DNA from: Flavobacteriales bacterium
GTDB taxonomy: Bacteria > Bacteroidota > Bacteroidia > Flavobacteriales_D > CALLUQ01
DNA: 64,000 nucleotides
Direction: 5' to 3'
NCBI GenBank assembly: GCA_963669295.1
Contig: OY769938.1
Span: 2,286,394 to 2,350,393, forward strand
The notes beneath the pieces were generated by a model. The model did not search any database, was not told the DNA's origin, and worked only from the letters and a program-made list of their open reading frames with translations. Shown here one piece after another: positions 28,231 through 48,177 of the stretch (position 1 is its first letter; every line of letters starts with the position of its first letter). Position numbers and translations under genes: made by a program.

Positions 28231-28304
28231 GGGCCTATAGCTCAGCTGGTTAGAGCACCTGACTCATAATCAGGGGGTCCCAGGTTCGAGCCCTGGTGGG
28301 CCCA
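28231..28304 (+). tRNA. tRNA-Met (anticodon CAT), elongator-type; tRNA-Ile2(lysidine) not excluded
   Basis: Manual cloverleaf: GGGCCTA-TA-GCTC-AGCTGGTTA-GAGC-A-CCTGA-CTCATAA-TCAGG-GGGTC-CCAGG-TTCGAGC-CCTGG-TGGGCCC-A. 74 nt, no encoded CCA. Confidence 0.9.
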
Positions 28305-28319
28305 CACTTTACAAAAGCA

Positions 28320-28582: not shown

Positions 28583-28813
28583 ATGAGTAAAACCACTAGA
28601 AGAGAGCGTTTTGAGAAAGTAGCAGCGCGAAGAACACAGAATATTCTTGACTCACTCGATAGTCTTTCTAAGTGTAGTAACAGAAATAACTATGAATATT
28701 CTGAAGAGGACATAAAGAAAATGATAAGAGCGATTAGGGAAAAATTAACACAAACAGAATCAGCGTTTGATAATGAAATAAGTAAGTCAAAAAAAAACCA
28801 ATTTAAGTTTTAG
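28583..28813 (+). CDS. small basic hypothetical protein, partner of the GHKL ATPase
   Basis: 76 aa (MSKTTRRERFEKVAARRTQNIL...). Its stop TAG overlaps the GTG of the next ORF (TAGTG). The upstream part of the tracked ORF is low-complexity and was dropped. Confidence 0.5.
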   Translation: MSKTTRRERFEKVAARRTQNILDSLDSLSKCSNRNNYEYSEEDIKKMIRAIREKLTQTESAFDNEISKSKKNQFKF

Positions 28814-31290
28814 TGCCAATGGACAGTAAAGAGATCTTTTTAAAAATTTTCAATTCCAAAGATGAAATTGAATTGGGAGAGTTTATAGACAGTGAATCAA
28901 CTCTTTTTGATGATGATAATTGGAAACCACTTGGAGAAAATTATAGCAATTATGGTGTAGTTAAGAATCAACAATCTAATCCAATTGCAGCACTAATTGA
29001 AAAGGTGACTAATTCAATTGATGCTATTTTAACAAAACAGTGTTTGGAAAATGGAATAAACCCTAAATCAGATGAGGCTCCAAGATCTATGGAAGATGCT
29101 ATTAATCAATTCTTCCCTGATAATTCAAACTGGGACCTTCAGAGTTTTAGAAAGGCGCAATCAGAGAATATTCAGGTAATTGCAGATGGAAAAGGTCCTC
29201 GTACCCAAAAAAGGCAATATCCAACATCAGTTATTATTTATGATAATGGAGAAGGCCAACATCCAGAAGACTTTGAAAGAACCTTCTTATCGCTACTCCG
29301 TGGAAATAAAAACGACATTCATTTCGTGCAAGGAAAGTATAATATGGGTGGATCTGGCGCTATCGTCTTTTGTGGTAAAAGAAGGTATCAACTTATAGCA
29401 TCAAGGCGATATGATAAAACAGGAGACTTCGGCTATACACTGATTCGAGAACATCCAAAAAAAACAACAGATCAAGCGAAAGAGACTTGGTACGAATACT
29501 GGATTCCTGATGGCATTATTCCTTGTTTTAGCATTGGCACTATGGATCTAGGTCTAAGCAACAAGAAATTTGAAACAGGAACTTTGATCAAACTATACTC
29601 TTATCAATTCCCTAAAGGGTATTCTGGATTTGCACAAGATTTGAATCAAAGTATTAATGAATTTTTATTCTCGCCTGCTCTACCCATATTGACTAAAGAT
29701 ACTGCTGAAAGATATCCAAATAATAAAGTTCTTGAAAATGATCTATTTGGACTAAAAAGAAGATTACAGAAGGAAGAAGATGATTATCTAGATACAAAAT
29801 TCTCTGAAACCTACAATGATGATTTATTTGGAGAAATGAAAGTATCTTGTTTTGTCTTCAAGGTAAAAGTAAAGGAGTTTGACATAAAAAAAACTAGGGA
29901 AGAGATTCAAAGGAGATACTTCAAAAATAACATGAATGTATTGTTCTCAATGAATGGACAAGTTCATGGTTATTATACCTCTGAGTTTATTACTCGTTCT
30001 CTGAAATTAAACTTGCTTAAAAATCACCTTCTTATTCATGTCGATTGTACAAACATGAAATATGAGTTTCGAAAGGAACTATTTATGGCTTCTAGAGATA
30101 GGCTTAAAGATGGCGAAGAGACTCAACTATTAAGACAGTATCTAGCAAAAAAGCTTGGTGCAACTGGTGGTAGATTATCAGAAATTCAAAAATTGAGAAA
30201 GCAGGCCGTTAATGTAGATACTTCTTCAAATACAAGTCAGCTTATCAAAGACTTTACTAAGAATCTTCCGATTAATTCGGATCTAATGAAGTTACTTGGC
30301 GACACATTCAAACTTGATTTAAAAAAAGAGAAAAAAGCAAAGAAGGCAGACCCAAAAAAGCCATCTAAACAAAAAGAAGAAATTCCTTTTCAACCTGAAC
30401 GATTTCCTTCTCAATTCAAAATTAATTCTAAATCAAAAGGAGATACTGAAGTTGCCAAAATCCCCATTAACGGAGAAAAGACAATAAAATTTGACACGGA
30501 TGTTGAGAATGATTATTTCGACAGAACTAGCGAACCTGGAGAACTTAAGATAGGGGTCTTAAATATTAAATCGAATGATGTCACAGGAGGAACTGCTCCT
30601 GGAGAACCAAAAGAGATATCAGACATATTCAATGTAAATAAAAGTAGTCCTAACAAGGGAACTATAAAATTAAGTTTAAATCCAAAGGAGAAGTTAAGTG
30701 TAGGAGATGCTGTTCAGTTAAAAGTATCTCTAACAGCACCTGGAGGTGATTTTGATGAAATCTTTTGGGTCAAAATTACAGACCCTGAAAAAGCCAAGGA
30801 ACCTTCGCCAAAAGTTGAAGACGACAACGAACCATTAGGATTACCAAATATGATATTTGCATATCAGAATAAGGAAGGCAAGGATGAAAACGCTGTTGAT
30901 TGGGAAGCGGTTGGCAATGCTACTAGCCAAGAAATGGACATTAAAACAGTAATGGTCCCAGATGCTTCAGGAGATAATCTTAATGGTATTTATGTTAATA
31001 TGGATAGTGCTGTTCTAAAAAGCTTTCTTTCTAGATATAAGAATCCTAACTCTGAACAAATTCAAATAGCCAATAGAAAGTACTATACCTCCGTCTATTT
31101 CCATACATTGTTTCTCTATACAATCACAAAAAATCGAGGATATGAAATTCAAAGAAAGATGGAGCAAACCGACAAATATGATCATGTAGACATTGCAGAG
31201 TACCTAATGGACTTATTTGATCATTATTACTCAACTTTTATCTTAAATTTTGGTGGCATGGAAGAAATGATGCAGGGTATTGGAGACTAA
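28813..31290 (+). CDS. GHKL (Bergerat-fold) ATPase domain protein, MORC/MutL-like N-terminus, unknown C-terminal region
   Basis: N box EKVTNSIDA (28999-29025), G1 box IIYDNGEGQ, G2 box GKYNMGGSG. Lys-rich linker (KKEKKAKKADPKKPSKQK). 825 aa. Alternative ATG start at 28819. Confidence 0.65.
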   Translation: MPMDSKEIFLKIFNSKDEIELGEFIDSESTLFDDDNWKPLGENYSNYGVVKNQQSNPIAALIEKVTNSIDAILTKQCLENGINPKSDEAPRSMEDAINQFFPDNSNWDLQSFRKAQSENIQVIADGKGPRTQKRQYPTSVIIYDNGEGQHPEDFERTFLSLLRGNKNDIHFVQGKYNMGGSGAIVFCGKRRYQLIASRRYDKTGDFGYTLIREHPKKTTDQAKETWYEYWIPDGIIPCFSIGTMDLGLSNKKFETGTLIKLYSYQFPKGYSGFAQDLNQSINEFLFSPALPILTKDTAERYPNNKVLENDLFGLKRRLQKEEDDYLDTKFSETYNDDLFGEMKVSCFVFKVKVKEFDIKKTREEIQRRYFKNNMNVLFSMNGQVHGYYTSEFITRSLKLNLLKNHLLIHVDCTNMKYEFRKELFMASRDRLKDGEETQLLRQYLAKKLGATGGRLSEIQKLRKQAVNVDTSSNTSQLIKDFTKNLPINSDLMKLLGDTFKLDLKKEKKAKKADPKKPSKQKEEIPFQPERFPSQFKINSKSKGDTEVAKIPINGEKTIKFDTDVENDYFDRTSEPGELKIGVLNIKSNDVTGGTAPGEPKEISDIFNVNKSSPNKGTIKLSLNPKEKLSVGDAVQLKVSLTAPGGDFDEIFWVKITDPEKAKEPSPKVEDDNEPLGLPNMIFAYQNKEGKDENAVDWEAVGNATSQEMDIKTVMVPDASGDNLNGIYVNMDSAVLKSFLSRYKNPNSEQIQIANRKYYTSVYFHTLFLYTITKNRGYEIQRKMEQTDKYDHVDIAEYLMDLFDHYYSTFILNFGGMEEMMQGIGD

Positions 31291-31295
31291 AATGT

Positions 31296-32213
31296 CTATA
31301 TCTTATATACATTTTCTAAATCTTTACGATATGTCTTGATTTTGTCTAATAGGCTTATTGAATTTGCTTCCATATCGAATACATTATTAAAACTGTGGAT
31401 CAAATCAAAAATGCTTTTGTTCTTTCTTTTGTTTTGAGAAAAATAATCTTTGAGCTCATTTATTCCATTAAAGTCGTAATTGTGAAGTTTCGAAATTAAC
31501 ACGTTCAAATTTGTCATAAACGTTTTATTTCTGAGCAGTGATACCGATAGGGTTTCCCTCAGTCCTCTCAACTTCTTTTCCAATACCACCACCTCATGTG
31601 CATACTCTGAAAATAGGTTGCTTAATATACGATCAAGTTGCTTTCTCGTAAAATTATCATCTATTCTATAGAGTAGAACGAGCAAATCGGCAGTATCTTC
31701 TATGTGTCCAATTTGTTGGTGTAGATAAAATGAGGAGAATTGCTCCTTAGCTGGATAATCATCTGTATGAAAATAAAGTTTGGTTGGAACAAATCCGTTG
31801 GGATGATTTTTAGACAATTTATATCGACTCAAAAACAGCGATAATGCAGCCGAATAAAACTCCCCATTGCTTTTTGAATAGCCAGATAACTTTTGAACTG
31901 TTCTAAAAAAATCTTCACCAAATTCATATTGAATTTCGCTATCAAGTTTTTGATTACTCCTAAAAACATTCAGTACCTTATCGATTTCTTCTTTCCTCTC
32001 TCTGACCTGAGAATTATCATTCCCCTTTTTCGTACCATACTTATCAATTCTATCATACACATTAGCACATACTTCATTAAATACTTTCTGACATAAATAG
32101 AAATCAATATTCTTAAGTTTTTTAATCAGGAAATCGTCCTCATCAATATGAATTAAATTGATGACCGAACATGCATCTAAGACACAAGTTATTTGATTCA
32201 ATCCTCCTTCCAT
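31296..32213 (-). CDS. PIN-like nuclease domain protein (putative), last gene of the Ssp-like operon
   Basis: Acidic PIN-type positions read by eye: CVLDACSVINL (D13), VFNEV (E47), NGEFYSAALSL (E118), FHTDDYPA (D151/152). Its start overlaps the upstream ATPase gene by 16 nt. Confidence 0.4.
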   Translation of the reverse strand: MEGGLNQITCVLDACSVINLIHIDEDDFLIKKLKNIDFYLCQKVFNEVCANVYDRIDKYGTKKGNDNSQVRERKEEIDKVLNVFRSNQKLDSEIQYEFGEDFFRTVQKLSGYSKSNGEFYSAALSLFLSRYKLSKNHPNGFVPTKLYFHTDDYPAKEQFSSFYLHQQIGHIEDTADLLVLLYRIDDNFTRKQLDRILSNLFSEYAHEVVVLEKKLRGLRETLSVSLLRNKTFMTNLNVLISKLHNYDFNGINELKDYFSQNKRKNKSIFDLIHSFNNVFDMEANSISLLDKIKTYRKDLENVYKI

Positions 32214-33316
32214 CCAATTATTTCATCTTTATTATCTTCAAAAAATTCAATTTTAATTGGAGCATCAATCTCATCTAAATCAGCTAATTCTAATAGAAGT
32301 GAAAATGCCTCATTAAAAGAACGAAGGGAAGCATTACCTTTTTCTTCAATTACCTTATCAACCAATTTTTCATCAAAAGGAAAGTATTCATTTCCATCAT
32401 TCCCTTCTCGGTATGACTTGAGTAAATCCACTAAATACAGTTTAAATTGTTCTTCTGTCGGCAAATCAAATTCAATACGTTCTTTTATTCTTGATTTAAC
32501 GGCTTCAGTAAGATATTCCCCCAAATCCTCAAGACCAAATAAGGCAGTTTGAGTTAAGTTTAAAAACATTAATAAGTTATTTGGAGTATTATCTAATATT
32601 TCCCTCAAAAAATTATTTGTTTTATCAATGTTAGAACTACTTAATATAGCTAAATCTTCAAACTCATCAAACCAAATTATTACGGTTGAAAACACCTTTT
32701 TTTCAAATGTCAAGCATGTGAATATTCCTGCTAGAAGTTTTGTATAATCACTATCTGAATTTAATTGTCTTAGAATTCCATATTCATTCAAATCCTTTAA
32801 TTCTGTATTTGTAATATTTCCATACAAATACTTCTTTAATAATGAGATATCGCTCACATTTTCATCAAATATTGCCTTTAACACACTTGTTATTTGCATA
32901 TTATCGCTGATGTCCTCAATAAATGGTAGTACTTGGACATTAGCTTCTTTAAAAGATGAACGTATCTCCTCTATGTTTAACTTATCGATAACAGCAGTAT
33001 AGATGTTATACACAGGGTCCTTTCCTTTAGGTAGAGTTATTACCATTGAGTACGGTAATGATGAATCTAAACTATCTGAAAGGGATTTCAATTCAGATTG
33101 TTTATTGAAAAACCGTGCTGCATGTGTTTTTCCACTTCCATACTCTCCCCAATTTAATACTAAGCTAGAATTTGGGATTCGAATACTTCTCTTGATTCTC
33201 TTCTCGAACTTTTCTTTTGTTTCTGAAAATCCAGCCCAAACTAAATCTTCTGAACTAGTAGCTGGTGTTATTCTGAAAGGGTTCGTTTTTAACTTATACT
33301 TTTCTTTGAAACTCAT
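32198..33316 (-). CDS. AAA+/ORC-Cdc6-style P-loop ATPase (uncharacterised)
   Basis: Walker A GEYGSGKT, Walker B VIIWFDEFEDL. ATGA start/stop overlap with the upstream gene at 33313-33316. Confidence 0.6.
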   Translation of the reverse strand: MSFKEKYKLKTNPFRITPATSSEDLVWAGFSETKEKFEKRIKRSIRIPNSSLVLNWGEYGSGKTHAARFFNKQSELKSLSDSLDSSLPYSMVITLPKGKDPVYNIYTAVIDKLNIEEIRSSFKEANVQVLPFIEDISDNMQITSVLKAIFDENVSDISLLKKYLYGNITNTELKDLNEYGILRQLNSDSDYTKLLAGIFTCLTFEKKVFSTVIIWFDEFEDLAILSSSNIDKTNNFLREILDNTPNNLLMFLNLTQTALFGLEDLGEYLTEAVKSRIKERIEFDLPTEEQFKLYLVDLLKSYREGNDGNEYFPFDEKLVDKVIEEKGNASLRSFNEAFSLLLELADLDEIDAPIKIEFFEDNKDEIIGWKED

Positions 33317-34986
33317 TTTAATATTTTTTGAATGTACCCATCCCCATACTGTTTTTGAAACTTGTATATGAATAAATCTTGTTCTTTACTTTTTAGATAA
33401 TTTACTATGAATTGATGCCCTACTTTTATGTTGTGAGTTAAGTACAATTTGTACTTGGCATATGTAATCGCTTGAGACGCAGTAACTCGATTTGGTGCTA
33501 AGGTCTTAAAGTATTTAAAACTGTCCATGAGACATGAAATCGTATTAGACACAACTTCATTTTTAGATATTTCTGTCTTTTCACCATTATAAATATCATC
33601 ATACATATGTACCATGAAACGGTTTAAAAAATCATTTGGTGACACTACTCTGGACCAATTGATGTCATTCCAATAACAGATATGACTGAATAATTTCACC
33701 CCTTTATTAGAAAGCTTCAAATTCAATCTTAAATCAATTTCAATTAACTCTAAATCATACAGCCAGTTAAGTCGAGGCATAAGAACGTGTTCTAGATATA
33801 CCTCTGGATTCTTCCAGTTTTGAATTCTATCTATGATTCTCTTCAATTCTTTATATTCTGCACTGTTCTTCTCAAACCAAAATAAATCGCTTAATTGTTT
33901 TAGTCTTTTTAATAGTAATTGCTGAAATGATTTTAGAAGTATTTGAAAGCTAGATTTCCTATTGAGTTTTAAATGCTCCAGGATAATAGAAGTATATAAG
34001 AAATCTTCTCTTAAGATTGTTTCAAGAAAAAACAGCTTGTCCAGTTTTGCTAAAGCAAAAGCATTTTCCGACTTAACTCCTAACTCTTTATTTAATGCAC
34101 CAAATACCTTAAAAAGTTTCCCAGAAGAATAAACATTGTTTAAAAGATTCAGAAACCCAAGGTCTTTGGCTACCTCAATATATGGCGCAGCAGAAGTACC
34201 ATTCTTTGTTACCTTAATTAGTCCTTTGTCGTTCTTATACTGACCTAGTTGAGTTCTATATTCCTCAACAAATCTTTCAAACTTTTTATTAATAAAATTA
34301 GAGGGTACTTTTTCCTGTTCTTGTAGAAACTTGAGAAGGAGTTTGAAGTATCCAAGTCTTCGAACTTTTGTGTTTGTGTTGAGAATGGACAATCTTCGAT
34401 TATCAGGAATTTTCTCGTAATTTTTGTAGAATACCCAATAAAACTCCGGAGGAGTATAACTATCATTAGCGAACCTTAATTTATCAATAACTTCATTGTA
34501 GAAATTTGAATTTGAAATGTAAGAATCAGCTATATGTATCTCGAAAATATAGTTTGGTTCAGTATCACAAAACGCTGCGGCATCAAAATCTTCGTTATAT
34601 CCTTCATTTTGAGATACAAAATATTCTTTGACCGAATCTTGATCTATTTCTTGTATAATTTGAATTGCTTCATACATTTTATTACATATAGAAAATGGTT
34701 CCGAATAATCAATTATATCATTTCTATAGCCTAAGTATTCGCTAGAGCCTATATATGAAGCAGACGGTTCAAGTCTAGAAAACTCTTCAAGTTCTTTTTC
34801 TGAAAGACTTCTATAAAAGAGGTCTTCTTCTATTTGTTCTGAAGTCCCCGAAGGAAGATCAAATACTATTTCATACTCGGTAAAATCAAATAGTAACCTA
34901 TCATTCCGTAGAAGTGAAGTATCATTAGAAAACTGATTCAATATTTTATAAACCTCAATCATTTCTATACAAAACATGTAATACAA
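33313..34986 (-). CDS. hypothetical protein (about 550 aa, no recognisable motif)
   Basis: Long uninterrupted ORF. Candidate starts are TTG 34986, ATG 34977 or ATG 34962, all within or 2 nt from the SspD-like stop at 34965. Confidence 0.6.
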   Translation of the reverse strand: MYYMFCIEMIEVYKILNQFSNDTSLLRNDRLLFDFTEYEIVFDLPSGTSEQIEEDLFYRSLSEKELEEFSRLEPSASYIGSSEYLGYRNDIIDYSEPFSICNKMYEAIQIIQEIDQDSVKEYFVSQNEGYNEDFDAAAFCDTEPNYIFEIHIADSYISNSNFYNEVIDKLRFANDSYTPPEFYWVFYKNYEKIPDNRRLSILNTNTKVRRLGYFKLLLKFLQEQEKVPSNFINKKFERFVEEYRTQLGQYKNDKGLIKVTKNGTSAAPYIEVAKDLGFLNLLNNVYSSGKLFKVFGALNKELGVKSENAFALAKLDKLFFLETILREDFLYTSIILEHLKLNRKSSFQILLKSFQQLLLKRLKQLSDLFWFEKNSAEYKELKRIIDRIQNWKNPEVYLEHVLMPRLNWLYDLELIEIDLRLNLKLSNKGVKLFSHICYWNDINWSRVVSPNDFLNRFMVHMYDDIYNGEKTEISKNEVVSNTISCLMDSFKYFKTLAPNRVTASQAITYAKYKLYLTHNIKVGHQFIVNYLKSKEQDLFIYKFQKQYGDGYIQKILK

Positions 34987-36101
34987 CCTTCTTCTGTATC
35001 ATCTAAAATATCCAAAAGGAATTTTGAGCCTTTCGACTTTTCACGTCCTTTTCTATTCAAGTGCTCACGTTTAATAGATTCAATACGACTAGCCTCTTTT
35101 AACTCTTCAAGTGATTCATATTGGTTCCAAGTAAATGTCTCGTCAATATTCTCATAGTGCATCGCCTGTTCATACAAATCAGGGTGTTGTTCATACAACC
35201 ACACCCATTCAATTTTTTGCTGAAAAAAACAGAAGAAACAACCTGATCTGCTTCTTGCATACTCTCCTTTTTGCCCATCAACTTCATACTCTATTTTATT
35301 GTAGTATGCAGGAACTCCTACTCCACTTTCTTCAAGAATTCGAAAAATATCATCTCGCACTAGAATGTCTTCATTTTCAAGTAATGGAAAACTGTCTTCT
35401 ATAGACAAAGCATAATTGGTAGTCTTCAGAAAATCATAAATCACTCTATTCATTCCACTTATGGAAATATCAAGACAAGTATCGATTTTCTTATGTAGAT
35501 TCTTCTGTGCAACAATTCTTTCATTGAAATTAGTTGATACTTCAATGTCGAGCGCCTTTTTGAACTTATCAAGACTTTCTATTCCTTGTATGGTTTGAAA
35601 TAAATCTAATGCTTTTGATTGATTATCAGAATGAAAAAACTTCGTCCAAACATCCTCACTCCAAATGTTTCTTCGAAAAGGAAAAATTGATTGTATGTTC
35701 TCCTTTTTAGAAACATATCCTTCCCTACTTTCATCACCTCTAATACCCACATATGACACCGTAGGAGCTGTTCCAACATATTTTTCAAATGGCTGTAACT
35801 TCATCATGTTTGTACACCATCTAGCTTGAGGAGAAGGAAGGTAGCCTTTGAATATTTTATAGAAATAATCAAATGGGTTTTCCGAGCTTTTTTCAGCTTC
35901 TTCAGCAATAAGACGCTTTATCTTTTTCCCGAGATAAGACTCCAAATTGTCAATCAATTGATAAGTTTCATCAAGCTCTTTTCCAGTATCACAACAATAG
36001 TAGTCGAACTCTATTTGTGGATATTTATCTCGCAAATAAATTGCCAATGCTGCACTATCCTTTCCTCCTGATATTCCTAATACATGTCGGGCTTTACTCA
36101 T
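34965..36101 (-). CDS. PAPS reductase/PP-loop ATP pyrophosphatase family protein (SspD/DndC-like)
   Basis: PP-loop GISGGKDSAA, ARWCTNMMKLQP, C-terminal SRSGCFFCFFQ cysteine motif. 8-nt overlap with the upstream ATPase gene. Confidence 0.75.
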   Translation of the reverse strand: MSKARHVLGISGGKDSAALAIYLRDKYPQIEFDYYCCDTGKELDETYQLIDNLESYLGKKIKRLIAEEAEKSSENPFDYFYKIFKGYLPSPQARWCTNMMKLQPFEKYVGTAPTVSYVGIRGDESREGYVSKKENIQSIFPFRRNIWSEDVWTKFFHSDNQSKALDLFQTIQGIESLDKFKKALDIEVSTNFNERIVAQKNLHKKIDTCLDISISGMNRVIYDFLKTTNYALSIEDSFPLLENEDILVRDDIFRILEESGVGVPAYYNKIEYEVDGQKGEYARSRSGCFFCFFQQKIEWVWLYEQHPDLYEQAMHYENIDETFTWNQYESLEELKEASRIESIKREHLNRKGREKSKGSKFLLDILDDTEEGCITCFV

Positions 36102-39100
36102 TTTCTAATTCTCTTTTTAACAACTTGGCAAGTGCCATAATTTTCACACTCTTGTCTTTAGTTAACTCTTTGTCAAGTGCAGCAATTGCTTTATCAAGTT
36201 CTTTCTTTTTTGATTTATTCATTTTAACAACGACTCCCTTCATTCCAGAATCTCTTGTTGTAATGTCGAGCTTAAACGCTTCGTCATCATCATTTGTCAC
36301 CTCATCAATTTCAAGAAGGTTATCCAATTCTTTGAACATGTGTAATAGTTGGTCTTTGAGTACCTCTTCTTCTTGATCTTGAATATCAACCAATCGTTTT
36401 TTAAGAATTGCATGAGCGATTGATTCAATCCAACTGTTTCTATCATTTATAGGTGAATTCAACCTTAATAAGAAAGTTTTTTGATACTGCACCAATTTGT
36501 GTTCTTTAATTCCTTTGTACCTTTCTTGTAGAACAGATTTGTACTTTGAAAATCCTAGACTCTCATCAAGTATCTCGTCTACTATAAATTTTTCTATACG
36601 ATTCAATAATTCTGGGTACGCTCCTCTTATTTCAGTTATAGTTTCCTGAAACCTAATGATGTACTGCTCATAAGAGTCTTGTGATGTTGAAACGTCAATA
36701 CTTCTGAATTTAAGAGCCTCAGGAAAATCTTCAAAAAACACTTTTTCTGGATCTTCAGATTTAGCAATTGCAGTTCTTAGGTTTATTGCTTCACTAGAGA
36801 TTCTCTTTGTAATCTTCGAATATTGTGGGAGATTCTTATAGAGAGATATTATAGGTCCGATACATTCGATAAAAGACTTTACAGTCATTTTATCTTGCGA
36901 TTCAAGGTTTAATAATTCCCGATATTTATTAAACAATTTTATTCTAGCATCAGAAAGTTCAAAGGACTTGATTTCATACTCCTTTGGTGATCGAGATATT
37001 AAATGTAGTCTTGTCGCATCAATTTTTGGAATGAAGCCTTCATCCCCATATAACGCATAATCGCCCCGTTTAATAAAAAGAAACAAAGGCACCCAAAAGT
37101 CGACCAACCCTTTCTTTAATTTATAAGGCTTAGTTTCTAGTACCTTATATAACTCTGTGAGACTCTTTCTTTCCTCCCTACATTCCGATAAAAACCTTTC
37201 AGAAGCGTCCCATATTTCCCAAATAGGTGATTGTTGAGTTGGTGCACCTAACTCATATTTCCCTTTTATCTTATTATGGAGTCCAGTTTCCTTTAACAGA
37301 GAAATGTATATAGTTTTTTCTGCTGGAAATTTAGACTCAGGGAAATCTAAATCCTGTTTACTCCAATTATCCGAAACGGCTGAAAACAAATTCTTTCTTG
37401 CCGTGTGAATCGCAGTCGAAATTTTGTGCTTATTGAATAATTCATTTCTCAGTTTTGGAGTACCTGAATACACTTCTTCACATATTAATGATAGTTGTTG
37501 GTTTAATTTTCGAGAGGAATCGATTTGAAGAATTTTACCTCTCCAAACCCAAGATACTTTGTCCGCAAATAAAGCATCCTTGACGTAGTGATTCAGTAAA
37601 GATTTATGACTTTCTATTATGTTTTTAAGCTCTTTTCTAGCAACTAAATCATCATCATCTATATTTTGAAGTACTCTACTTGACTTTTCAATTTCAAACA
37701 AGGAATTTTTAATGTCACCAGCATTTTTGAAAAGACAGTAAATAATCGCTTCATCATGATTATTCGAAAATTCTTTTAACTTCTTTTCTGAAAGATCTTC
37801 ATTAAATACTAGGTTAATAAATCCATCAATCTCATCAACAGGGATATCTTGAGTTGGGTTTCGTGTTATCTTATATTCAAATAGTCTTGGTGTTCCAGTC
37901 TTATAGGAAAATGCTTTCGCCGTCAATATTGAGAATTCAAACGAATCTCTAAGTTTTGCAACAATATCAATATCATTCTCAACTTGGTTCTCAGCTTTTA
38001 ATAATGCTCCTTCTATGTCCAAATCAGTTCCTTCGAATAGCTTGTAAGAATCACTGAATTTATTGAAGCGGACTATTTGCAGCCTTGATAATTCGGATAT
38101 TACGCCTTTAGTATCACTCGATTGAGAGTTTCTTGTTATCTCCAGATATTCTTCGAGTAGACCATTGTCAATTATTGCTCCCTTATTAGCGAAAAGAGAT
38201 AGTAGTCCTACTGATTTAACAATAGAAAGGGCAAGTGATTGATTTTCCTCTATTCTGGCCTCAACCCTTTCAATTGAGGATCTAATACTTGCCCACTGAA
38301 TATAGTCTGGGTTATTGCGAGAAGACAGAAATGGATAGAAGTCCGCCCATAAATAGTCATAGACTTTGTCAATGCTGAAATAACTTTCAGTTTTACTATT
38401 CTCTCCAAATTTAGATAAAAATGAGAAGAGGGAACGTTCATTTTGACCATACCTCTGAAGAGATGCGGTGAGTATGAATGCAGATATTGGATCCAAGGGG
38501 TATAATCCATTAGAAATTCCTTCAAAGAATGTCTCACTAACCTTGAATAGCTTGTTGTTCTCAACTAATTTACCAATAGCATGACTACCATCCATTATCT
38601 GTACACCTAAATCCTCTGCTTGAAGTTTTTCAGATGCCAAGTACAATAACTGTTCTATTGGTTCGTTAAACGGCAACTCTTTAAATCGACCCTTTATTTT
38701 TCTCCATTCATTTCTCTCAATCTCACTTAAGTTAGAACCGTATGTATCGAAAGCTTGATGCAGGGTAGTAATAAAAAGTATATTTCGATTTGGGGAATTA
38801 ACAAACTCTGCCAATTGTTGAATAAAATAAAGCTCCCTTTCTGGATTATTCTTGACGGCATACTCAAGGAATTTCCCCATTTCATCAATCTGAATCACCA
38901 ACATTCCATTTTCCTCCCCTACTTCTTCATATTGTTGGTATATGGCATCAAAAAGTTCTTGATTACCTGAATGGGAACTTGAAACATTTAACACCTCGTG
39001 AAAATGCCCAATCATTGATTCATATACACCAACGATATTTATGAACTTTACATTCTCAACCTTATCGGGCAATGTCAAATCAAAGAGCTTTCTCTTATTA

Positions 39101-39300
39101 AGAATTGACTGCTCTATTGCCCATAGAAAAGAAGACTTACCTGTACCGTAAGAACCTATCAAATTGAATGAGTGAATCCCTTTCTTAAACTCATTAAAAA
39201 TGGTATAAATTGATTTCTGAGCATTGGGTGTTACAATATATTCTAACTGAGAATCTTCATCTCTTATAATGTTAACCGAAGGAGTATATCTATTTGCCAT
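36094..39300 (-). CDS. giant P-loop ATPase (SspC-like / BrxC-style)
   Basis: 1068 aa. Walker A GSYGTGKS (39133-39156), Walker B MLVIQIDEMGKF. 11-nt overlap with the upstream DUF4007-like gene. Confidence 0.6.
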   Translation of the reverse strand: MANRYTPSVNIIRDEDSQLEYIVTPNAQKSIYTIFNEFKKGIHSFNLIGSYGTGKSSFLWAIEQSILNKRKLFDLTLPDKVENVKFINIVGVYESMIGHFHEVLNVSSSHSGNQELFDAIYQQYEEVGEENGMLVIQIDEMGKFLEYAVKNNPERELYFIQQLAEFVNSPNRNILFITTLHQAFDTYGSNLSEIERNEWRKIKGRFKELPFNEPIEQLLYLASEKLQAEDLGVQIMDGSHAIGKLVENNKLFKVSETFFEGISNGLYPLDPISAFILTASLQRYGQNERSLFSFLSKFGENSKTESYFSIDKVYDYLWADFYPFLSSRNNPDYIQWASIRSSIERVEARIEENQSLALSIVKSVGLLSLFANKGAIIDNGLLEEYLEITRNSQSSDTKGVISELSRLQIVRFNKFSDSYKLFEGTDLDIEGALLKAENQVENDIDIVAKLRDSFEFSILTAKAFSYKTGTPRLFEYKITRNPTQDIPVDEIDGFINLVFNEDLSEKKLKEFSNNHDEAIIYCLFKNAGDIKNSLFEIEKSSRVLQNIDDDDLVARKELKNIIESHKSLLNHYVKDALFADKVSWVWRGKILQIDSSRKLNQQLSLICEEVYSGTPKLRNELFNKHKISTAIHTARKNLFSAVSDNWSKQDLDFPESKFPAEKTIYISLLKETGLHNKIKGKYELGAPTQQSPIWEIWDASERFLSECREERKSLTELYKVLETKPYKLKKGLVDFWVPLFLFIKRGDYALYGDEGFIPKIDATRLHLISRSPKEYEIKSFELSDARIKLFNKYRELLNLESQDKMTVKSFIECIGPIISLYKNLPQYSKITKRISSEAINLRTAIAKSEDPEKVFFEDFPEALKFRSIDVSTSQDSYEQYIIRFQETITEIRGAYPELLNRIEKFIVDEILDESLGFSKYKSVLQERYKGIKEHKLVQYQKTFLLRLNSPINDRNSWIESIAHAILKKRLVDIQDQEEEVLKDQLLHMFKELDNLLEIDEVTNDDDEAFKLDITTRDSGMKGVVVKMNKSKKKELDKAIAALDKELTKDKSVKIMALAKLLKRELENE

Positions 39301-40162
39301 AATACTTTTCTAAAACGTTAAACTTATTCGGTTTCCCATCCTTAAATTGAAGTTCTTTCACACCTGCATCATTTTTATAGACTATACCCTCAAACTCTTT
39401 TTCTATTTCTTGTAGAATCGATTCAAGGTTATCTTTATCAAAACAAAATACATTACCTGTACTTTCATGTGATTCAAACAAAGAACTAAAACTTATCGAA
39501 TCACCATAATCTTCATTATCAAGGATGGAATAAAGAACGATTTCCTTAGGTATCGATAACTGATTTCTATTCTCAATTCTATAAATGCTATTCTTAAGCT
39601 CATCTTTTCTAGCTAGTTCATGTAATAATCCAAGTTCTGTAAGCAACCCCGAATAACTTTCCTCAATATCTTTAGATGGTTTAGAAAAATACGTCCTAAC
39701 AAAAACAGAAAAATCTTTTTCTAACGTGTTTTCGTTTGCATTACCATCTTTTTCTAATGCTAAGGACTTAAAATGAAGCTTTGTGAATTCAGGTTTTAGC
39801 TTTCTCAGTTCTCCAAAAATGAGGTGATAAATTGATGCTCTCGATTTTGACTTTACGAGCGAGTAATGAAGTAACCATAAAGTTCCTTCGTCTTCCATAT
39901 ATGGATCATATCCATTATCCTGAAATATACTTGTTGCTAACTCACTGACTTGATCATAATCATCAAATAACCCAAATGCTCTCAGCCAATATCGAATTGA
40001 CCCAACCATATTTCTTCCAACGCCTAGCTTCATAACCGCCGAATCATTGAAACTAGCTTCTGATTCATTCGCATAATCAAAGCCTTTTTTTAACCAAAAA
40101 CTTCGACAGTGAAATGTCTCATGCCCAGAAAAATTGTAATTAACCTCGTTTCTCATCAACAT
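39290..40162 (-). CDS. DUF4007-like protein (SspB-like)
   Basis: 290 aa. The N-terminal FSGHETFHCRSFWLKKGFDY is, as I recall it, the DUF4007 signature. Its genomic partnership with PAPS reductase and a large ATPase fits that family. Confidence 0.55.
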   Translation of the reverse strand: MLMRNEVNYNFSGHETFHCRSFWLKKGFDYANESEASFNDSAVMKLGVGRNMVGSIRYWLRAFGLFDDYDQVSELATSIFQDNGYDPYMEDEGTLWLLHYSLVKSKSRASIYHLIFGELRKLKPEFTKLHFKSLALEKDGNANENTLEKDFSVFVRTYFSKPSKDIEESYSGLLTELGLLHELARKDELKNSIYRIENRNQLSIPKEIVLYSILDNEDYGDSISFSSLFESHESTGNVFCFDKDNLESILQEIEKEFEGIVYKNDAGVKELQFKDGKPNKFNVLEKYYGK

Positions 40163-40358
40163 TCATTTTAATACTAGAAACTATTAATTCTCTAACATCT
40201 ACATCAAGATGTTTAGCGATTTCATAGAGCAATTCTATCTTAGGCTGACACTTATTAGTACAATAGTTTGTCACCATCACAGTGCTCTTTCCAATCTGCT
40301 GCGCCAACCATTTTTGAGAACGCCCTTGTTCCTTTAATACTTCCTTAATTCTATTCAT
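40140..40358 (-). CDS. XRE-family helix-turn-helix transcriptional regulator
   Basis: QKWLAQQIGKSTVMVTNYCTNKCQPKIELLYEIAKHL is HTH_3-like. ATG 40358 preferred over GTG 40364. Overlaps the next gene by 23 nt. Confidence 0.8.
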   Translation of the reverse strand: MNRIKEVLKEQGRSQKWLAQQIGKSTVMVTNYCTNKCQPKIELLYEIAKHLDVDVRELIVSSIKMNVDEKRG

Positions 40359-40372
40359 AGTCACCTACTTGT

Positions 40373-40403
40373 GATCAAGGATCAAGTTTAATTATTATTA
40401 AAC
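40373..40403. promoter_or_regulatory. candidate operator upstream of the XRE/Ssp-like operon
   Basis: Tandem GATCAAG GATCAAG (40373-40386), immediately followed by the inverted repeat GTTTAAT-TATT-ATTAAAC (40386-40403). Lies 15-45 nt upstream of the XRE start. Confidence 0.3.
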
Positions 40404-40475
40404 TAATATTTTAACTTTTATTAAAATATTTTTACACCACATAATGTATATAATGGATTGAAGTATTAAAGGGAA

Positions 40476-40778
40476 TCACTTCTTTCCAAAGGCAGCACCT
40501 ATGGCAATATGAACGGCACGGCTTGAAAGTATCTTACCTAAAACTCCATTCGGTTTAAGGCCAAGGGACTTAATAAGTATTCTTCCTATTAGTCTTCCAA
40601 AGGCCAGACCTGTTAAACCTCCTAGAATGCGTTTAAATGCGGATTCATTGGTGTTTGATAAGTAATCGTCTATAGACAGACCAGATTCTTTTAATTCATT
40701 CCAAAATGCTGTTTCAATATCCTTTTCCTTCTTTGATTGAATGGAAGAAATGAATTCTTCGTATGATTTTATATCCAT
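40476..40778 (-). CDS. hypothetical small protein with Gly-rich amphipathic/TM C-terminus
   Basis: 100 aa. C-terminus GGLTGLAFGRLIGRILIKSLGL...AVHIAIGAAFGKK. Confidence 0.45.
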   Translation of the reverse strand: MDIKSYEEFISSIQSKKEKDIETAFWNELKESGLSIDDYLSNTNESAFKRILGGLTGLAFGRLIGRILIKSLGLKPNGVLGKILSSRAVHIAIGAAFGKK

Positions 40779-40808
40779 GATAGGGCTTTTAGTTATATAT
40801 CAAAAAAA

Positions 40809-40827
40809 GTTTCAACTGATTTGAAAC
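40809..40827. promoter_or_regulatory. inverted repeat in a divergent promoter region
   Basis: GTTTCAA-CTGAT-TTGAAAC, about 30 nt upstream of ATG 40856. Confidence 0.25.
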
Positions 40828-40855
40828 AATTTGATTGGTCGTGTCTATACAAGAC

Positions 40856-42091
40856 ATGAAAAAAGAAATAAAAGCACATTTTATACTTCCTGAAAGTGGA
40901 TTTAGAAGAGTGATGAGTAGTCCTATGTCTAAGAAATCAAAAAGTAGAGACAAACTTCTTTTTGTTGTGAGTTCATTGTACTGTTATCAATACAAAAACT
41001 TCAACCCAGATTACAAAGGCTTCATTCCGTTACACTCTAGTATTTTAAAAAAGTTTTTGGGCAATCATTCCTACACATCTTTTATAAAAGAACTCATGAG
41101 ATTGGGGATGATCGAAAGGTCAGGATTGTATGTGCCATCACAAATTAGTCGTGGATATAGACTTAAAGAACCTTTTCGGTCTGATAAACCAATTTTGATA
41201 AAAGCTAAGGATAAGGTAATCACAAACAAACTTATCGCTACTAGGATTAGTGAAGAACAGCTTTTAACGGATGTAGATCGGTTTTTATTCAAAAACTTAA
41301 GGAGAATGTCATTCCGAGTTGAAGACGGCTTAGAACAGATTAAAACAGATTTAGAGATGAATGAAGCTTATACGCAATATCGCTTCAATTCTGATTTCGT
41401 TTCAATTGTAGAATTAGCAGATGAGAACTTTAGGTTCACACGAGATCAATTCGGAAATCGTGCTCATCATAATTTAACCAATATGCGCTCCTCATTAAAG
41501 AAGTTTTTGCGTGTTGATGGAATCGATGAATTAATAGGGCTGGATATTGCCAATTCTCAACCGTTTCTATTCAATGTAATTCTACGAAAAATGTACCCAT
41601 CCGAAATACCTAAAGATGTTGAACATTACATTAACCTTACGAGCAATGGAAACTTCTATTCGTATTTAAAAGAACACTTAAATAACAACAAAAGCATTAA
41701 GCAAATTAAGAAGGAGTTTTTTGGAAAGGTATTTTTCAGTCGAAACTTCATTTATGGTCGAAAAAATACTAATGAATATACACTACTGATGGAGCAACAT
41801 TTCCCTACAGTTTATAAAGCTATTTGGCATTGCAAAAGAAGAAATCACAAGGAGCTACCAAAGGCATTACAACAAGTAGAAAGTCATATAATAATTGATA
41901 CCGTAATTGAATCCGTTTCTACTAAGAACCCAAATGCATTTTGCATCACAATTCATGATGAGATTTTGACCACAATGGAGCACTTAAAATTGGTTGAAAA
42001 TAAGCTATTGGATGGGTTTGATCAATTTAGTCTCAAACCCTTGATACGACTGAGAAAATATAGTAATATATTTGCTAAAAAACTTGCATAA
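40856..42091 (+). CDS. compact protein with family-A DNA polymerase / T7-type polymerase-like palm motifs (putative replication protein)
   Basis: Residue numbers follow the 418-aa tracked ORF from 40835. Motif A-like GLDIANSQPFLF (D237). Motif B-like KEFFGKVFFSRNFIYG (Y307 G308) followed by HFPTVYKAIW. ALQQVESHIIID (compare PolA QGTAADIIK). Motif C-like CITIHDEILT (H374 D375 E376). Confidence 0.35.
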   Translation: MKKEIKAHFILPESGFRRVMSSPMSKKSKSRDKLLFVVSSLYCYQYKNFNPDYKGFIPLHSSILKKFLGNHSYTSFIKELMRLGMIERSGLYVPSQISRGYRLKEPFRSDKPILIKAKDKVITNKLIATRISEEQLLTDVDRFLFKNLRRMSFRVEDGLEQIKTDLEMNEAYTQYRFNSDFVSIVELADENFRFTRDQFGNRAHHNLTNMRSSLKKFLRVDGIDELIGLDIANSQPFLFNVILRKMYPSEIPKDVEHYINLTSNGNFYSYLKEHLNNNKSIKQIKKEFFGKVFFSRNFIYGRKNTNEYTLLMEQHFPTVYKAIWHCKRRNHKELPKALQQVESHIIIDTVIESVSTKNPNAFCITIHDEILTTMEHLKLVENKLLDGFDQFSLKPLIRLRKYSNIFAKKLA

Positions 42092-42302
42092 TTCAATTGT
42101 TTTTCCTATATTTATTATGTTATTGAAAGGAAGAAGTTTTATGCTTATAAAGTAAATTAAAACGACATAAAAAAGAACTCTTAAAAGGGTGTATATATCT
42201 GTTTGGATATTTGCACCCTTTTTTATTGGTGCGCACCAAAGAGCAATAACACAAAACAATAATTTATTAATCAGCTTAACGACCAGTTTCGAACTGTATC
42301 GT

Positions 42303-42512
42303 ATGGCACAATTATGTCCAAAAATGAAGACAGAAAACACACAATTTATTGACAGTTCAAACTGTCCTGAAAAGCTCTTTGAATGCGCTATAAATGAGAA
42401 CCTACTAATGAATGCCATTAATGAGCAAATTTCAGAACATGAGATAGAATTATGGTTAAAAACTATTGACCACAAAATGTTTAATAACGAATGGGATCTC
42501 ATAGAATACTAA
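42303..42512 (+). CDS. small hypothetical protein
   Basis: 69 aa from ATG 42303. Followed by a perfect palindrome. Competes with a low-complexity antisense ORF. Confidence 0.3.
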   Translation: MAQLCPKMKTENTQFIDSSNCPEKLFECAINENLLMNAINEQISEHEIELWLKTIDHKMFNNEWDLIEY

Positions 42513-42529
42513 TAATTAAATATAAACCC

Positions 42530-42551
42530 GCTCTCACCTTAAGGTGAGAGC
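42530..42551. other. perfect 22-bp palindrome / hairpin
   Basis: GCTCTCACC-TTAA-GGTGAGAGC. No T run follows. Lies 16 nt upstream of ATG 42567. Confidence 0.5.
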
Positions 42552-42566
42552 ACAAAACAAATAAAT

Positions 42567-42896
42567 ATGATTACAGAAGAAAAAGAATTAGAAATCACAG
42601 TAGAAGAATTTATAAAGCTAGTCCCAGAGTGTTGTCCTCATTGTGTTGAGGAAATGTTTCCAGACTTAGTAATGTTACCCTTGGTATATGAAGATGCCAA
42701 ATTAGAAGACATTGTAAAAGAATTTAAAAAGGAATATTCAACCATAAGGAAAGTTGTAGAATATATGGGCGCAACTGTCTACTATGACAAAGATGGAAAC
42801 GAAGAAGATGTTGACCTTGGAGGACTTACAGAAGTAAGATGGGAATGCTCATCGTGTCAAGCAGTATTTGAAGATTATAAACCAGAAAACTATTAG
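42567..42896 (+). CDS. small acidic protein with putative CxxC...CxxC zinc ribbon
   Basis: 109 aa with CCPHC near the N-terminus and CSSC near the C-terminus. Confidence 0.5.
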   Translation: MITEEKELEITVEEFIKLVPECCPHCVEEMFPDLVMLPLVYEDAKLEDIVKEFKKEYSTIRKVVEYMGATVYYDKDGNEEDVDLGGLTEVRWECSSCQAVFEDYKPENY

Positions 42897-42898
42897 AA

Positions 42899-43294
42899 AT
42901 GAAAAATACAAAATATGAATTCGAGTATGAATCTGATATAATTCTAGAGGAAGAATTTACATTGATATTAGACTCATCAGAAATAGGTTATGAGAATCCG
43001 ACAATAGACCAAATTTCAGATTGGATTAAGGATAACTATAAAGCCGTGTTTAACCACGATAATGAGTACATAGTAGATTTCGATTATGTAGATGAAGTAT
43101 ACTGCAATCTTAAAAACTTTAAAGTGAGTGGAAAACAAATCGAAGGAGAGGTACTCGACAGAGATTATCGTTTAGGAGATAATGTTTGGGGGTTGCAAGA
43201 CTATGAAAGTCTTTGCCATAAAAACATATTTGGGTCAGGTAAACAATGTACTGACTTAGCAGATTATATTATAAATTCTTTATACCAATTGTAA
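42899..43294 (+). CDS. small acidic hypothetical protein
   Basis: 131 aa. Starts 2 nt after the previous stop. Confidence 0.5.
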   Translation: MKNTKYEFEYESDIILEEEFTLILDSSEIGYENPTIDQISDWIKDNYKAVFNHDNEYIVDFDYVDEVYCNLKNFKVSGKQIEGEVLDRDYRLGDNVWGLQDYESLCHKNIFGSGKQCTDLADYIINSLYQL

Positions 43295-43554
43295 TGAAAA
43301 TAGAAATTAAGATAACACCTAAACTTAGATACGAAAAACAGTTTAAATCAAAACTCGAATTCAAATATTTTGAAAAGGCTCAAAAAACGGCTGAAGTCAA
43401 AGGAATTAGCTTTTTGGACGAAGTAAAATACTTAACTAAGAATTATCCTTTCTTTATGAAGCATAATTGTATGGAAGCTGATAGATCTTCATTAGAAGAA
43501 AAAAGTGAATTAGTTGAAATTTATGAACTCGGTGATATAGAAATACTTAAATGA
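43294..43554 (+). CDS. small hypothetical protein
   Basis: 86 aa. 1-nt start/stop overlap with the previous ORF. Confidence 0.5.
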   Translation: MKIEIKITPKLRYEKQFKSKLEFKYFEKAQKTAEVKGISFLDEVKYLTKNYPFFMKHNCMEADRSSLEEKSELVEIYELGDIEILK

Positions 43555-43580
43555 ATCGAAACATACTAGGTTCTGAACTT

Positions 43581-43621
43581 AAAAAGCCAACTGACTGAAA
43601 AACTGTCGGTTGGCTTTTTTT
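43581..43621. terminator. bidirectional rho-independent terminator between convergent genes
   Basis: Stem AGCCAACTGAC / GTCGGTTGGCT (one G-T pair), flanked by A5 on the left and T7 on the right. Confidence 0.65.
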
Positions 43622-43650
43622 ATTTCTTTAGTGCACAAAAAATGAACTAA

Positions 43651-44349
43651 TTATGCATAAGAGTCAGCTAAATATTCACAGTACTTGTAAAAGGAAAAAT
43701 CTTCCGATCCATCTTTTCTGAATTCCTCTAGAGTTACCCCATACTGATCAGAAATCTTAACCCCACTCCATCTTATCATATTGTCAAGAGTTGTATCTAA
43801 TAATATCTCTGGAGCTTCAAGTTCTACCCCATAGAAATGATCAACATAAGAACTGTCTACATCCAAAAATTTATGCATCCACATAAAAAATTCAGTTGAA
43901 TTATATCCATAAGTTATTCCATCTAATGAAGGTTCTGGTAGAGGAACGTGGCTTGAATTTGCACTAAAAAACACATATAATACATTATAAGACAAATATT
44001 CCTCAAAGCTGTTGAAATGAGATTTGCAATTATTGTACTCAATTAAACATTGATCAAATTTTAAATATTCTTCACCCACTTCAGGTATGATAAAGACTTG
44101 AAGCTTTGAAATTTCGTTTAACAAATAGTTAGGATAGGTGAATTTCTGATTTAAGTCAATGATTTGATCTGACAGTTCATACATTTCAGCATTTTCTATT
44201 ATTCTTTCCAATTCTGACAATGTAACAAAAGAATCCAGCAATACTTTTGGATTCTTTTCAGCAATTATACTATCAATTTGTTTTTGAACGTATTCAACAA
44301 AAGTGTTTTTGCGAAGTTCAGAAGTTAAGTTTTCTATGTTCATAATCAT
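43651..44349 (-). CDS. hypothetical protein
   Basis: 232 aa. ATGA overlap with the upstream ORF at 44346-44349. Confidence 0.5.
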   Translation of the reverse strand: MIMNIENLTSELRKNTFVEYVQKQIDSIIAEKNPKVLLDSFVTLSELERIIENAEMYELSDQIIDLNQKFTYPNYLLNEISKLQVFIIPEVGEEYLKFDQCLIEYNNCKSHFNSFEEYLSYNVLYVFFSANSSHVPLPEPSLDGITYGYNSTEFFMWMHKFLDVDSSYVDHFYGVELEAPEILLDTTLDNMIRWSGVKISDQYGVTLEEFRKDGSEDFSFYKYCEYLADSYA

Positions 44350-44702
44350 GTACTTGCTTCTACCTCAAAACCTCCTGTTTTGGTCATTTGAGGATTTGTT
44401 TTTCCTACTTGATAAAGATACTCGGCACCATCATTACGAGAATCGTAGAAATCTGTCATACCGTTTTCGCAGTAATACAATTCGTAAAGAGCTTCTTTAT
44501 TCTCTTCTGAAAGGACATCTTCATTTTCATCTATGAAGCTATCTACATCATAAATTTCATTAGCAAGAAACTCAACTAAGCTTTGAGCATCTTCCCCTTT
44601 ATATTTGGGAGTGCATTTCTTTAGGTTATCAATATCAAATTCTTGTACTTCACTCGCTGAACTCATTTGATACACTTCAACCTTTCTTATTTGTACTTTC
44701 AT
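44346..44702 (-). CDS. small highly acidic hypothetical protein
   Basis: 118 aa, rich in D/E (DVDSFIDENEDVLSEENKEALYELYY). Confidence 0.5.
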   Translation of the reverse strand: MKVQIRKVEVYQMSSASEVQEFDIDNLKKCTPKYKGEDAQSLVEFLANEIYDVDSFIDENEDVLSEENKEALYELYYCENGMTDFYDSRNDGAEYLYQVGKTNPQMTKTGGFEVEAST

Positions 44703-44711
44703 ATTAGTTTT

Positions 44712-46226: not shown

Positions 46227-46325
46227 TTTGGATAAAAGTAAATTCGATTAATTCAGAATAACTGTACATTAATGTACACTATTGGTTATTTTTGATTTAT
46301 AACCTTGAATGGTTGTATTTAAATA

Positions 46326-47958: not shown

Positions 47959-48177
47959 CTATTTACCTCTTTTGGTAGGCTTTTTTCTTAGATTAGGATA
48001 AGGGACTATTTTCTTTTTATCCTCACAGACTTCTTCAATGATTTTATGATTCAGTTTAACCAGTAGTTCGTTCTGTTCCTTTAGCAGTCTATTCTGCTCA
48101 CCAAGACTATCTAGATTAGCCAATTGTATCAAAATCACCTCTTCCATTTCTTCCTTGGTATATCTTAACTTACCCAT
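47959..48177 (-). CDS. small coiled-coil hypothetical protein
   Basis: 72 aa. 1-nt overlap with the upstream HTH gene. Confidence 0.45.
   Translation of the reverse strand: MGKLRYTKEEMEEVILIQLANLDSLGEQNRLLKEQNELLVKLNHKIIEEVCEDKKKIVPYPNLRKKPTKRGK

Follow-up and report, generated by a model that had tools for sequence, protein, structure and literature searches.

A 64-kb stretch of the genome of a Flavobacteriales bacterium (contig OY769938.1), hereafter the window, carries a seven-gene operon at 31296-40364 on the minus strand. In this operon the genes of a DNA phosphorothioation (PT) system of the Ssp type, sspB, sspC and sspD, follow a regulator gene of the XRE family and precede three genes of an undescribed Ssp-linked module, here termed X, Y and Z. 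The operon sits on a ~21-kb integrative island of low guanine-cytosine (GC) content that extends from a tRNA-Met gene to a tyrosine integrase gene (Table 1). We consider it reasonably likely that a PT writer and a discrimination and effector arm, XYZ, are combined in this one operon.

An earlier note on this DNA described the first four open reading frames (ORFs) on the minus strand, namely XRE and those of 290, 1068 and 378 amino acids (aa); their coordinates, motifs and overlaps of 23, 11 and 8 nucleotides (nt) are as given there. The note ended the module at 34965 and left out X, Y and Z, through which the operon continues, as well as a convergent gene for a predicted GHKL ATPase of 825 aa, here called H825. 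Consecutive ORFs from XRE to Z overlap by 23, 11, 8, 22, 4 and 16 nt, and because the overlaps run through the whole series, the seven genes form one translationally coupled operon.

The first gene has an in-frame ATG at 40358 as its probable start, with a 23-nt overlap with sspB. An HTH_3 gene also heads the Marinoscillum and Filimonas loci, in the same position as the XRE gene here. The intergenic region upstream of it contains TAAACTTG about 20 nt before the ATG. This sequence is one mismatch away from the Bacteroidota -7 motif, TAnnTTTG, and may be part of the promoter.

Table 1. Features of the operon, the convergent ATPase gene and the island edges, in window coordinates
Feature	Position	Strand	Support and remarks
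tRNA-Met	28231..28305	+	ARAGORN; left edge of low-GC island
H825, 825 aa, predicted GHKL (MORC-like) ATPase	28813..31290	+	Convergent to Z; 5 nt between the stop codons
Z, 305 aa, predicted PIN nuclease	31296..32213	-	16-nt overlap with Y
Y, 372 aa, predicted BrxD-like (ORC/Cdc6-clade) AAA+ ATPase	32198..33316	-	4-nt overlap with X
X, 557 aa, no known family	33313..34986	-	22-nt overlap with sspD (13 nt from ATG start)
SspD, 378 aa, PP-loop ATP pyrophosphatase / PAPS-reductase fold	34965..36101	-	PAPS_reduct 2.6e-10; PADLOC SspD 1.4e-91
SspC, 1068 aa, ORC/Cdc6-type AAA+ ATPase	36094..39300	-	PADLOC SspC E=0, 1289 bits, 1036/1039 positions
SspB, DUF4007, 290 aa	39290..40162	-	Pfam DUF4007 3.4e-73 over 288/288 positions; PADLOC SspB 1.1e-95
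XRE-family helix-turn-helix regulator, 72-74 aa, first operon gene	40140..40364	-	Pfam HTH_3 1.2e-9; GTG start 40364
AT-rich intergenic region, presumed promoter/operator of the 9-kb operon	40365..40475	-	Read from sequence, upstream of XRE
HTH_17 excisionase-like gene	48177-48629	-	HTH_17 1.3e-12; right island edge
Tyrosine integrase	48635-49861	-	Phage_integrase and Phage_int_SAM_5, each 4e-14; right island edge

The SspBCD genes and their sulfur supply

The identity of SspB, SspC and SspD proposed in the earlier note is borne out by the Pfam and PADLOC matches of Table 1, and we regard the three proteins as almost certainly a bona fide Ssp-type PT writer, judging from their sequences. The motif quoted for SspB, FSGHETFHCRSFWLKKG, is present in the translation, and the protein is 27% identical to SspB of Escherichia coli C10. 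SspC contains the Walker A motif GSYGTGKS and the Walker B motif IQIDEMG and shows 24% identity to its E. coli C10 counterpart over 962 aa. The SGGKDS and GCFFCFF motifs are found in SspD, where residues S11-G-G-K-D-S16, C96, C288, C291, C373 and C376 are conserved in at least 93% of 39 sequences. E. coli SspD (278 aa) has the RSGC-F-CFF and the C-terminal CxxC motifs in common with it and is ~49% identical in two BLASTP blocks on either side of an insertion.

This insertion of ~110 aa relative to E. coli SspD (residues ~146-254) splits the PADLOC SspD match in two. BrxP and part of the SspD proteins are reported to have an additional alpha+beta domain (PMC12839542), to which the insertion probably corresponds.

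The lack of a linked desulfurase and of a methyltransferase had been singled out as noteworthy. Both are indeed missing: tblastn with Flavobacterium SspA found neither a cysteine desulfurase (no match at E<=0.01) nor a class-V aminotransferase across the 64 kb, and protein profile scans of the island and flank ORFs yielded no methyltransferase family. PT systems use no methyltransferase, and none is expected here. The sspBCD genes typically form a three-gene operon with sspA adjacent or elsewhere, an IscS ortholog can stand in for SspA, and the FF-93 system was reconstituted from iscS and sspBCD (PMC8092258). Another paper (PMC12914056) and its preprint treat sspBCD as the smallest set of genes for PT, because an IscS ortholog can replace SspA, and report PT dependent on brxP and brxC in Bacteroides thetaiotaomicron with the housekeeping SufS only. 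Among 41 related loci (see below), an SspA homolog lies within 10 kb in 13, and 28 are without one. Since an unlinked IscS or SufS is accepted in these papers and most related loci also do without SspA, the absence of a linked desulfurase is ordinary for sspBCD and not an anomaly; the sulfur is very probably supplied by a desulfurase encoded elsewhere. Taken alone, the sspBCD part is thus routine, another operon with its desulfurase at a distance.

The X, Y and Z genes, their distribution and accompanying modules

The X protein has no sequence match in Pfam, PADLOC, NCBIfam or PDB. Its family is small: a search of 1.84 billion representatives at E<=1e-3 gave 396 clusters (50% identity). Of the best matches, roughly one in three is a form of ~360 aa without residues 1-190. 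The AlphaFold2 model, built from 59 sequences, has a predicted local distance difference test score (pLDDT) of 91.9 and a predicted TM-score (pTM) of 0.92. It comprises a poorly conserved N-terminal alpha/beta domain (residues 1-190) and a conserved, helical core rich in winged helices (191-557), with mean pairwise identities of 22% and 40%, respectively. Residues T206-K-x-R-R-x-G-Y213, E399-H400, P404-R-x-N-W408, T495-x-A-P-x-R500 and D549-G-Y-x-Q553 of the core are invariant. Foldseek gave nothing at E<0.01 against PDB and BFVD; its weak matches include the winged helices of PadR, MukE/F and ORC, and N.BspD6I and a phage FokI-like protein, both with FokI-type recognition domains. The short relatives of X show weak, sub-threshold matches to HTH_45. 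A relationship of X to the triple winged-helix module of SspB, to SspC, to SspD or to the sulfur-binding domains of the ScoMcrA type was considered and rejected (hhalign probabilities at most 5.5%). No plasmid homolog of X was found.

The Y protein is a predicted AAA+ ATPase close to BrxD. Its Pfam matches to BrxC_BrxD (6.8e-4, 19.1 bits versus a cutoff of 22.2), AAA_22 and TniB are sub-threshold, and many of its homologs have a precomputed match to PF10923 (BrxC_BrxD). Walker A (G57-x-YGSGKT64), Walker B (D217-E218), R276 and R332 are at least 93% conserved.

The Z protein does not reach any Pfam PIN model. Its AlphaFold2 model (pLDDT 90.6) finds VapC and PAE0151 PIN structures in Foldseek with a probability of 1.00 and TMt of 0.62-0.66, at E-values of only 0.03-0.3. 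None of the residues D13, E47, D151, D152 and D173 varies among 59 sequences, which fits the D-E-D-D site of four acidic residues in PIN nucleases. UniRef lists one homolog as DUF4935, a PIN-like family to which no function has been assigned (PMC5499597). The DUF4935 / PIN_12 group of VapC-like PIN domains of Matelska et al. (2017) resembles Z in its N-terminal PIN-like domain of ~200 aa with inserts after strands S2 and S3, its C-terminal extension, its conserved acidic residues and its lack of an assigned function.

The distribution of the module was studied in 41 loci, obtained by an alignment-based scan for X with one genome per species; a scan with the X sequence alone gave nothing. The loci belong mostly to Bacteroidota (Flavobacteriales, Cytophagales, Sphingobacteriales, Chitinophagales and Bacteroidales), with one from Desulfococcaceae and one from a metagenome-assembled genome (MAG) labelled Clostridia. 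Some of the taxa come from gut-associated samples. By tblastn, Y was found in all 41 loci, Z in 40, SspC and SspD in 39 each, and SspB in 36. XYZ is joined to sspBCD in 39 of the 41 species-level loci, and the gene order across the set is invariably B-C-D-X-Y-Z on one strand; the gene calls of Flavobacterium chilense, Marinoscillum and Filimonas lacunae give the same order. Correlations of pairwise identities are 0.50-0.76 within SspB/C/D and 0.71-0.77 within X/Y/Z, versus 0.25-0.47 between the two blocks. In the MAG labelled Clostridia (locus L038, 9860-13715), XYZ is found without SspBCD, among housekeeping genes. Because of the block-wise correlations and this solitary occurrence, XYZ forms, as far as sequence comparison can tell, a separate evolutionary module, nearly always docked to sspBCD.

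The neighbours of the solitary XYZ are genes for archaeal-type GatD/GatE. On the Desulfococcaceae contig (L018/L004), XYZ lies between two partly identical genes for ScoMcrA-type sulfur-binding domains, one also with HNH, and the decayed remains of an SspB, SspC and SspD set.

A third module, either Pbe or H825, accompanies 29 of the 41 loci. Homologs of PbeA and PbeC occur downstream of Z in 23 loci (including L001/L009 and L053), and F. chilense and Filimonas have the full PbeABCD set after XYZ. SspA is often located between SspBCD-XYZ and the Pbe genes. PbeABCD has been described with archaeal Dnd systems; no mention of an Ssp-Pbe pairing was found in the literature examined. The PbeA protein is an HKD nuclease-helicase (PMC10853773), its helicase being of the SF2 type, and PbeC is a CxC ABC ATPase. 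Searches of the window with F. chilense PbeA and PbeC (tblastn) gave nothing.

The place downstream of Z is taken in the window by H825. Its Pfam match to HATPase_c_3 is sub-threshold (4.2e-4, 20.8 bits versus a cutoff of 25), the Bergerat motifs ExxxNxxD, DxGxG and a G-rich loop are recognisable by eye, and there is no PADLOC model for it. Homologs of H825 adjoin SspBCD-XYZ in six of the 41 loci, or seven of 42 if the window is counted. Its three closest plasmid homologs (45-57% identity; Hymenobacter, Ensifer and Devosia; L048-L050) all lie at most 10 kb from sspBCD at loci without XYZ; more distant homologs are not Ssp-linked. From these neighbourhoods, the H825 subfamily of predicted GHKL ATPases appears as an Ssp associate in its own right, across phyla.

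On the Hymenobacter plasmid (NZ_CP110137, 11439-18545), the genes after SspB-C-D encode a 345-aa DUF262 protein and a 279-aa member of the SIR2 family, and the H825 homolog is convergent. This pair resembles an SspE-like sensor that has been separated from its HNH nuclease and is paired with a SIR2 effector in its place. The H825 homolog of the two alphaproteobacterial plasmids (Ensifer and Devosia) is joined by a ~780-aa 'sensor histidine kinase' and a ~650-aa hypothetical protein. A small basic ORF of 76 aa (MSKTTRRERFEK...) at 28584-28811 on the plus strand of the window ends right at the start of H825, which suggests a two-gene unit; tblastn found no homolog of it in the related loci.

Proposed mode of action and rival explanations

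The SspABCD-SspE systems of Vibrio cyclitrophicus FF75 and E. coli 3234/A have the same SspB-C-D order, domains and PP-loop and Cys motifs as the operon described here, and their desulfurase can be supplied in trans. In contrast to them, the operon has three unrelated genes after sspD, no SspE, and the 110-aa insertion in SspD; none of the island proteins matches PADLOC SspE, Pfam DUF262 or DUF1524. The SspBCD-SspFGH systems of Vibrio anguillarum FF-93 and E. coli C10 also have a three-gene module with a Walker-A ATPase beside sspBCD, and take IscS from elsewhere. The sizes differ (605, 510 and 1794 aa for SspF, SspG and SspH versus 557, 372 and 305 aa for X, Y and Z), SspH has an FtsK-like C-terminus, and here there is no FtsK-like translocase and the predicted nuclease is a PIN domain.

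We therefore do not equate XYZ with SspFGH: the PADLOC models miss X, Y and Z, the BLASTP E-values are all above 0.5, and profile-to-sequence hhalign probabilities are below 3%. As a positive control, SspF, SspG and SspH of E. coli C10 match their PADLOC models at 1e-203 or better; their locus was taken from the coordinates in Table S2 of PMC8092258, where the genes measure ~1.8, 1.5 and 5.3 kb. The PADLOC models for SspA, SspE, Pbe and Dnd proteins likewise do not match X, Y or Z.

DndFGH, PbeABCD and the Menshen system NsnABC are built on the same logic: a P-loop ATPase and a nuclease are combined with a subunit that has multiple winged helices or binds DNA. XYZ has no sequence or profile relationship to them, and its predicted ATPase is an AAA+ protein of the ORC clade, unlike the ABC ATPases or kinase of those systems. 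The PIN domains of Menshen NsnC are inactive, whereas Z keeps an active-type D-E-D-D site. The BrxD protein of bacteriophage exclusion (BREX) type 2, a standalone ORC/Cdc6 ATPase, resembles Y, whose BrxC_BrxD match stays below the Pfam threshold.

In the mechanism that we propose, SspB would recognise and nick the target, SspC would serve as the AAA+ ATPase of the PT writer, and SspD, the PP-loop enzyme, would adenylate and thiolate. Together they would place PT marks on one DNA strand, and the sulfur would come from a housekeeping desulfurase of the IscS, SufS or NifS type. XYZ is probably tied to PT in its function, and would discriminate DNA by its PT status or respond to invaders. The X protein would be a DNA-binding sensor, with its fast-evolving N-terminal domain possibly setting the specificity or sensing the invader, the BrxD-like ORC/Cdc6 ATPase Y a loader or transducer, and Z the PIN nuclease effector. 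We give an even chance to such a sensor-ATPase-nuclease effector. By analogy, it could be licensed by PT like SspE, or blocked by PT like SspFGH and DndFGH; we consider both modes. The XRE protein would repress or tune the operon. H825 would be a second, interchangeable Ssp partner in the position held by PbeABCD in most related loci.

Several points weigh against this proposal. The functions given for X, Y, Z and H825 are all inferred. The DNA-binding role of X would follow from weak winged-helix matches (E 0.1-0.5), with no significant relative in structure or sequence, and Z may cut RNA rather than DNA, as the top PIN matches of its model are VapC-type RNases. PbeABCD (23 of 41 loci) or H825 (seven of 42) could be the real restriction arm, in which case XYZ would do something else. 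All 41 loci were gathered by way of X, and their counts do not give the share of SspBCD systems that have XYZ. The mirror-tree correlations use raw identities, uncorrected for phylogeny. The desulfurase search was confined to the 64-kb window.

It is unlikely that XYZ is a part of the modification machinery, with a role in target choice, in DNA scanning or loading, or in compensation for SspA, and that restriction is left to H825 or PbeABCD. Canonical SspBCD with a desulfurase is enough for PT in E. coli without XYZ (PMC8092258), and the joint occurrence of XYZ and SspA in 13 loci shows that XYZ is no substitute for SspA. The XYZ block evolves apart from SspBCD and stands alone in L038, and an invariant PIN active site would be unexpected in a writer accessory. 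These observations have to be set against the location of XYZ inside the sspBCD operon, in translational coupling with sspD, the third module (nuclease-bearing Pbe, or H825) at 29 of 41 loci, and the H825 homologs that track SspBCD even where XYZ is lacking.

XYZ might also be independent of PT and act in abortive infection or as a 'backup', with a PIN endoRNase that the ATPase and the sensor restrain and that is set off by inhibition of the primary system. In structure, Z comes closest to RNase toxins of the VapC type, the sensor-transducer-effector logic is like that of Menshen NsnABC, XYZ is solitary in L038, and comparative-genomics papers propose PIN and HEPN endoRNases as backup suicide effectors beside Dnd and BREX cores. 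We nevertheless hold this to be improbable, given that 39 of the 41 loci keep XYZ with sspBCD in a fixed order, which is tighter than expected of 'mix and match' backup effectors, and that no antitoxin-like partner is evident.

A solitary SspBCD with an epigenetic role only has been raised for the 84% of systems without SspE or SspFGH (PMC8092258), and X, Y, Z and H825 would then be unrelated neighbours in a defence island. With ORFs overlapping from XRE through Z, collinearity in 39 of 41 species from several Bacteroidota orders, H825 homologs linked to Ssp in three further genera, and a location on a mobile low-GC island, this explanation is very unlikely here.

BREX type 4 (BrxP-BrxC-PglZ-BrxL), which the earlier note had named as a competing assignment, has a homologous PT writer in which BrxP corresponds to SspD plus SspB and BrxC to SspC. 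The SspD insertion, moreover, is like the one in BrxP and a subset of SspD. Here SspB and SspD are separate genes with no BrxP fusion, Pfam and PADLOC scans of the island found no PglZ and no BrxL or Lon-like protein, and there is no BrxHI helicase. In PADLOC, the Ssp models give E-values that are tens of orders of magnitude below those of the Brx models (SspB 1.1e-95 versus BrxP 7e-5; SspC E=0 versus BrxC 1.7e-67; SspD 1.4e-91 versus BrxP 3e-9). Nothing supports the different chemistry that the earlier note had offered as an alternative, as SspD preserves the motifs of the PP-loop and the cysteines, which do not differ from those of the E. coli protein. BREX type 4, another non-Ssp PT system, or a PAPS-reductase module with non-PT chemistry are thus hardly tenable. 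XYZ as the discrimination and effector arm of a PT writer remains the reading that we favour.

The genomic island and the significance of XYZ

The GC content falls from ~0.41 to 0.30-0.35 across ~28 to ~50 kb of the window. Neither a second copy of the tRNA-Met 3' end nor a convincing flanking direct repeat was found at the two island ends (49862-50020 at the right). No other repeat like an attachment (att) site was found, and the island boundaries are drawn from GC content alone.

The part of the island at 40476-47537 is largely without annotation and contains an ORF of 100 aa (40476-40778) with a hydrophobic, Gly/Ala-rich C-terminus, as well as several small ORFs. Two proteins of 418 and 403 aa in this part match no family, and a 504-aa protein at 44712-46226 has MORN_2 repeats. 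No relaxase or mobilisation gene was seen in this part, unlike the F. chilense element, which has MobC and a relaxase. The island is flanked by ordinary Bacteroidota chromosomal genes. The flanking chromosome includes a gene for a bacterial alpha-2-macroglobulin of 2076 aa (8698-14928, plus strand) and one for a lectin or N-glycanase-like protein of 1154 aa (15838-19302, minus strand) that is sorted by the type IX secretion system (Por_Secre_tail).

The interest of the locus arises from the 3.7 kb past the point where the module was previously taken to end, with the Ssp-linked XYZ and the convergent gene for the predicted GHKL ATPase. The absence of a recognised restriction partner for most sspBCD modules is a published open problem in PT defence; 84% have neither SspE nor SspFGH, and more counterparts were suggested (PMC8092258). 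Filimonas lacunae is listed in Table S2 of that paper without SspE and without SspFGH, and its sspBCD is nonetheless followed by X, Y, Z and PbeABCD. PADLOC 2.0, Pfam and NCBIfam have no entry for the XYZ module, and no description of SspBCD with a PIN/BrxD-like module was found in the literature searched, which is not proof of absence. Because it is fused to sspBCD in 39 of 41 loci and has apparently intact nuclease and ATPase motifs, XYZ is a testable candidate for the missing sspBCD partner. At about 3.7 kb it is small enough to lend itself to reconstitution in a heterologous host. Another candidate partner is H825, the predicted GHKL ATPase linked to Ssp.

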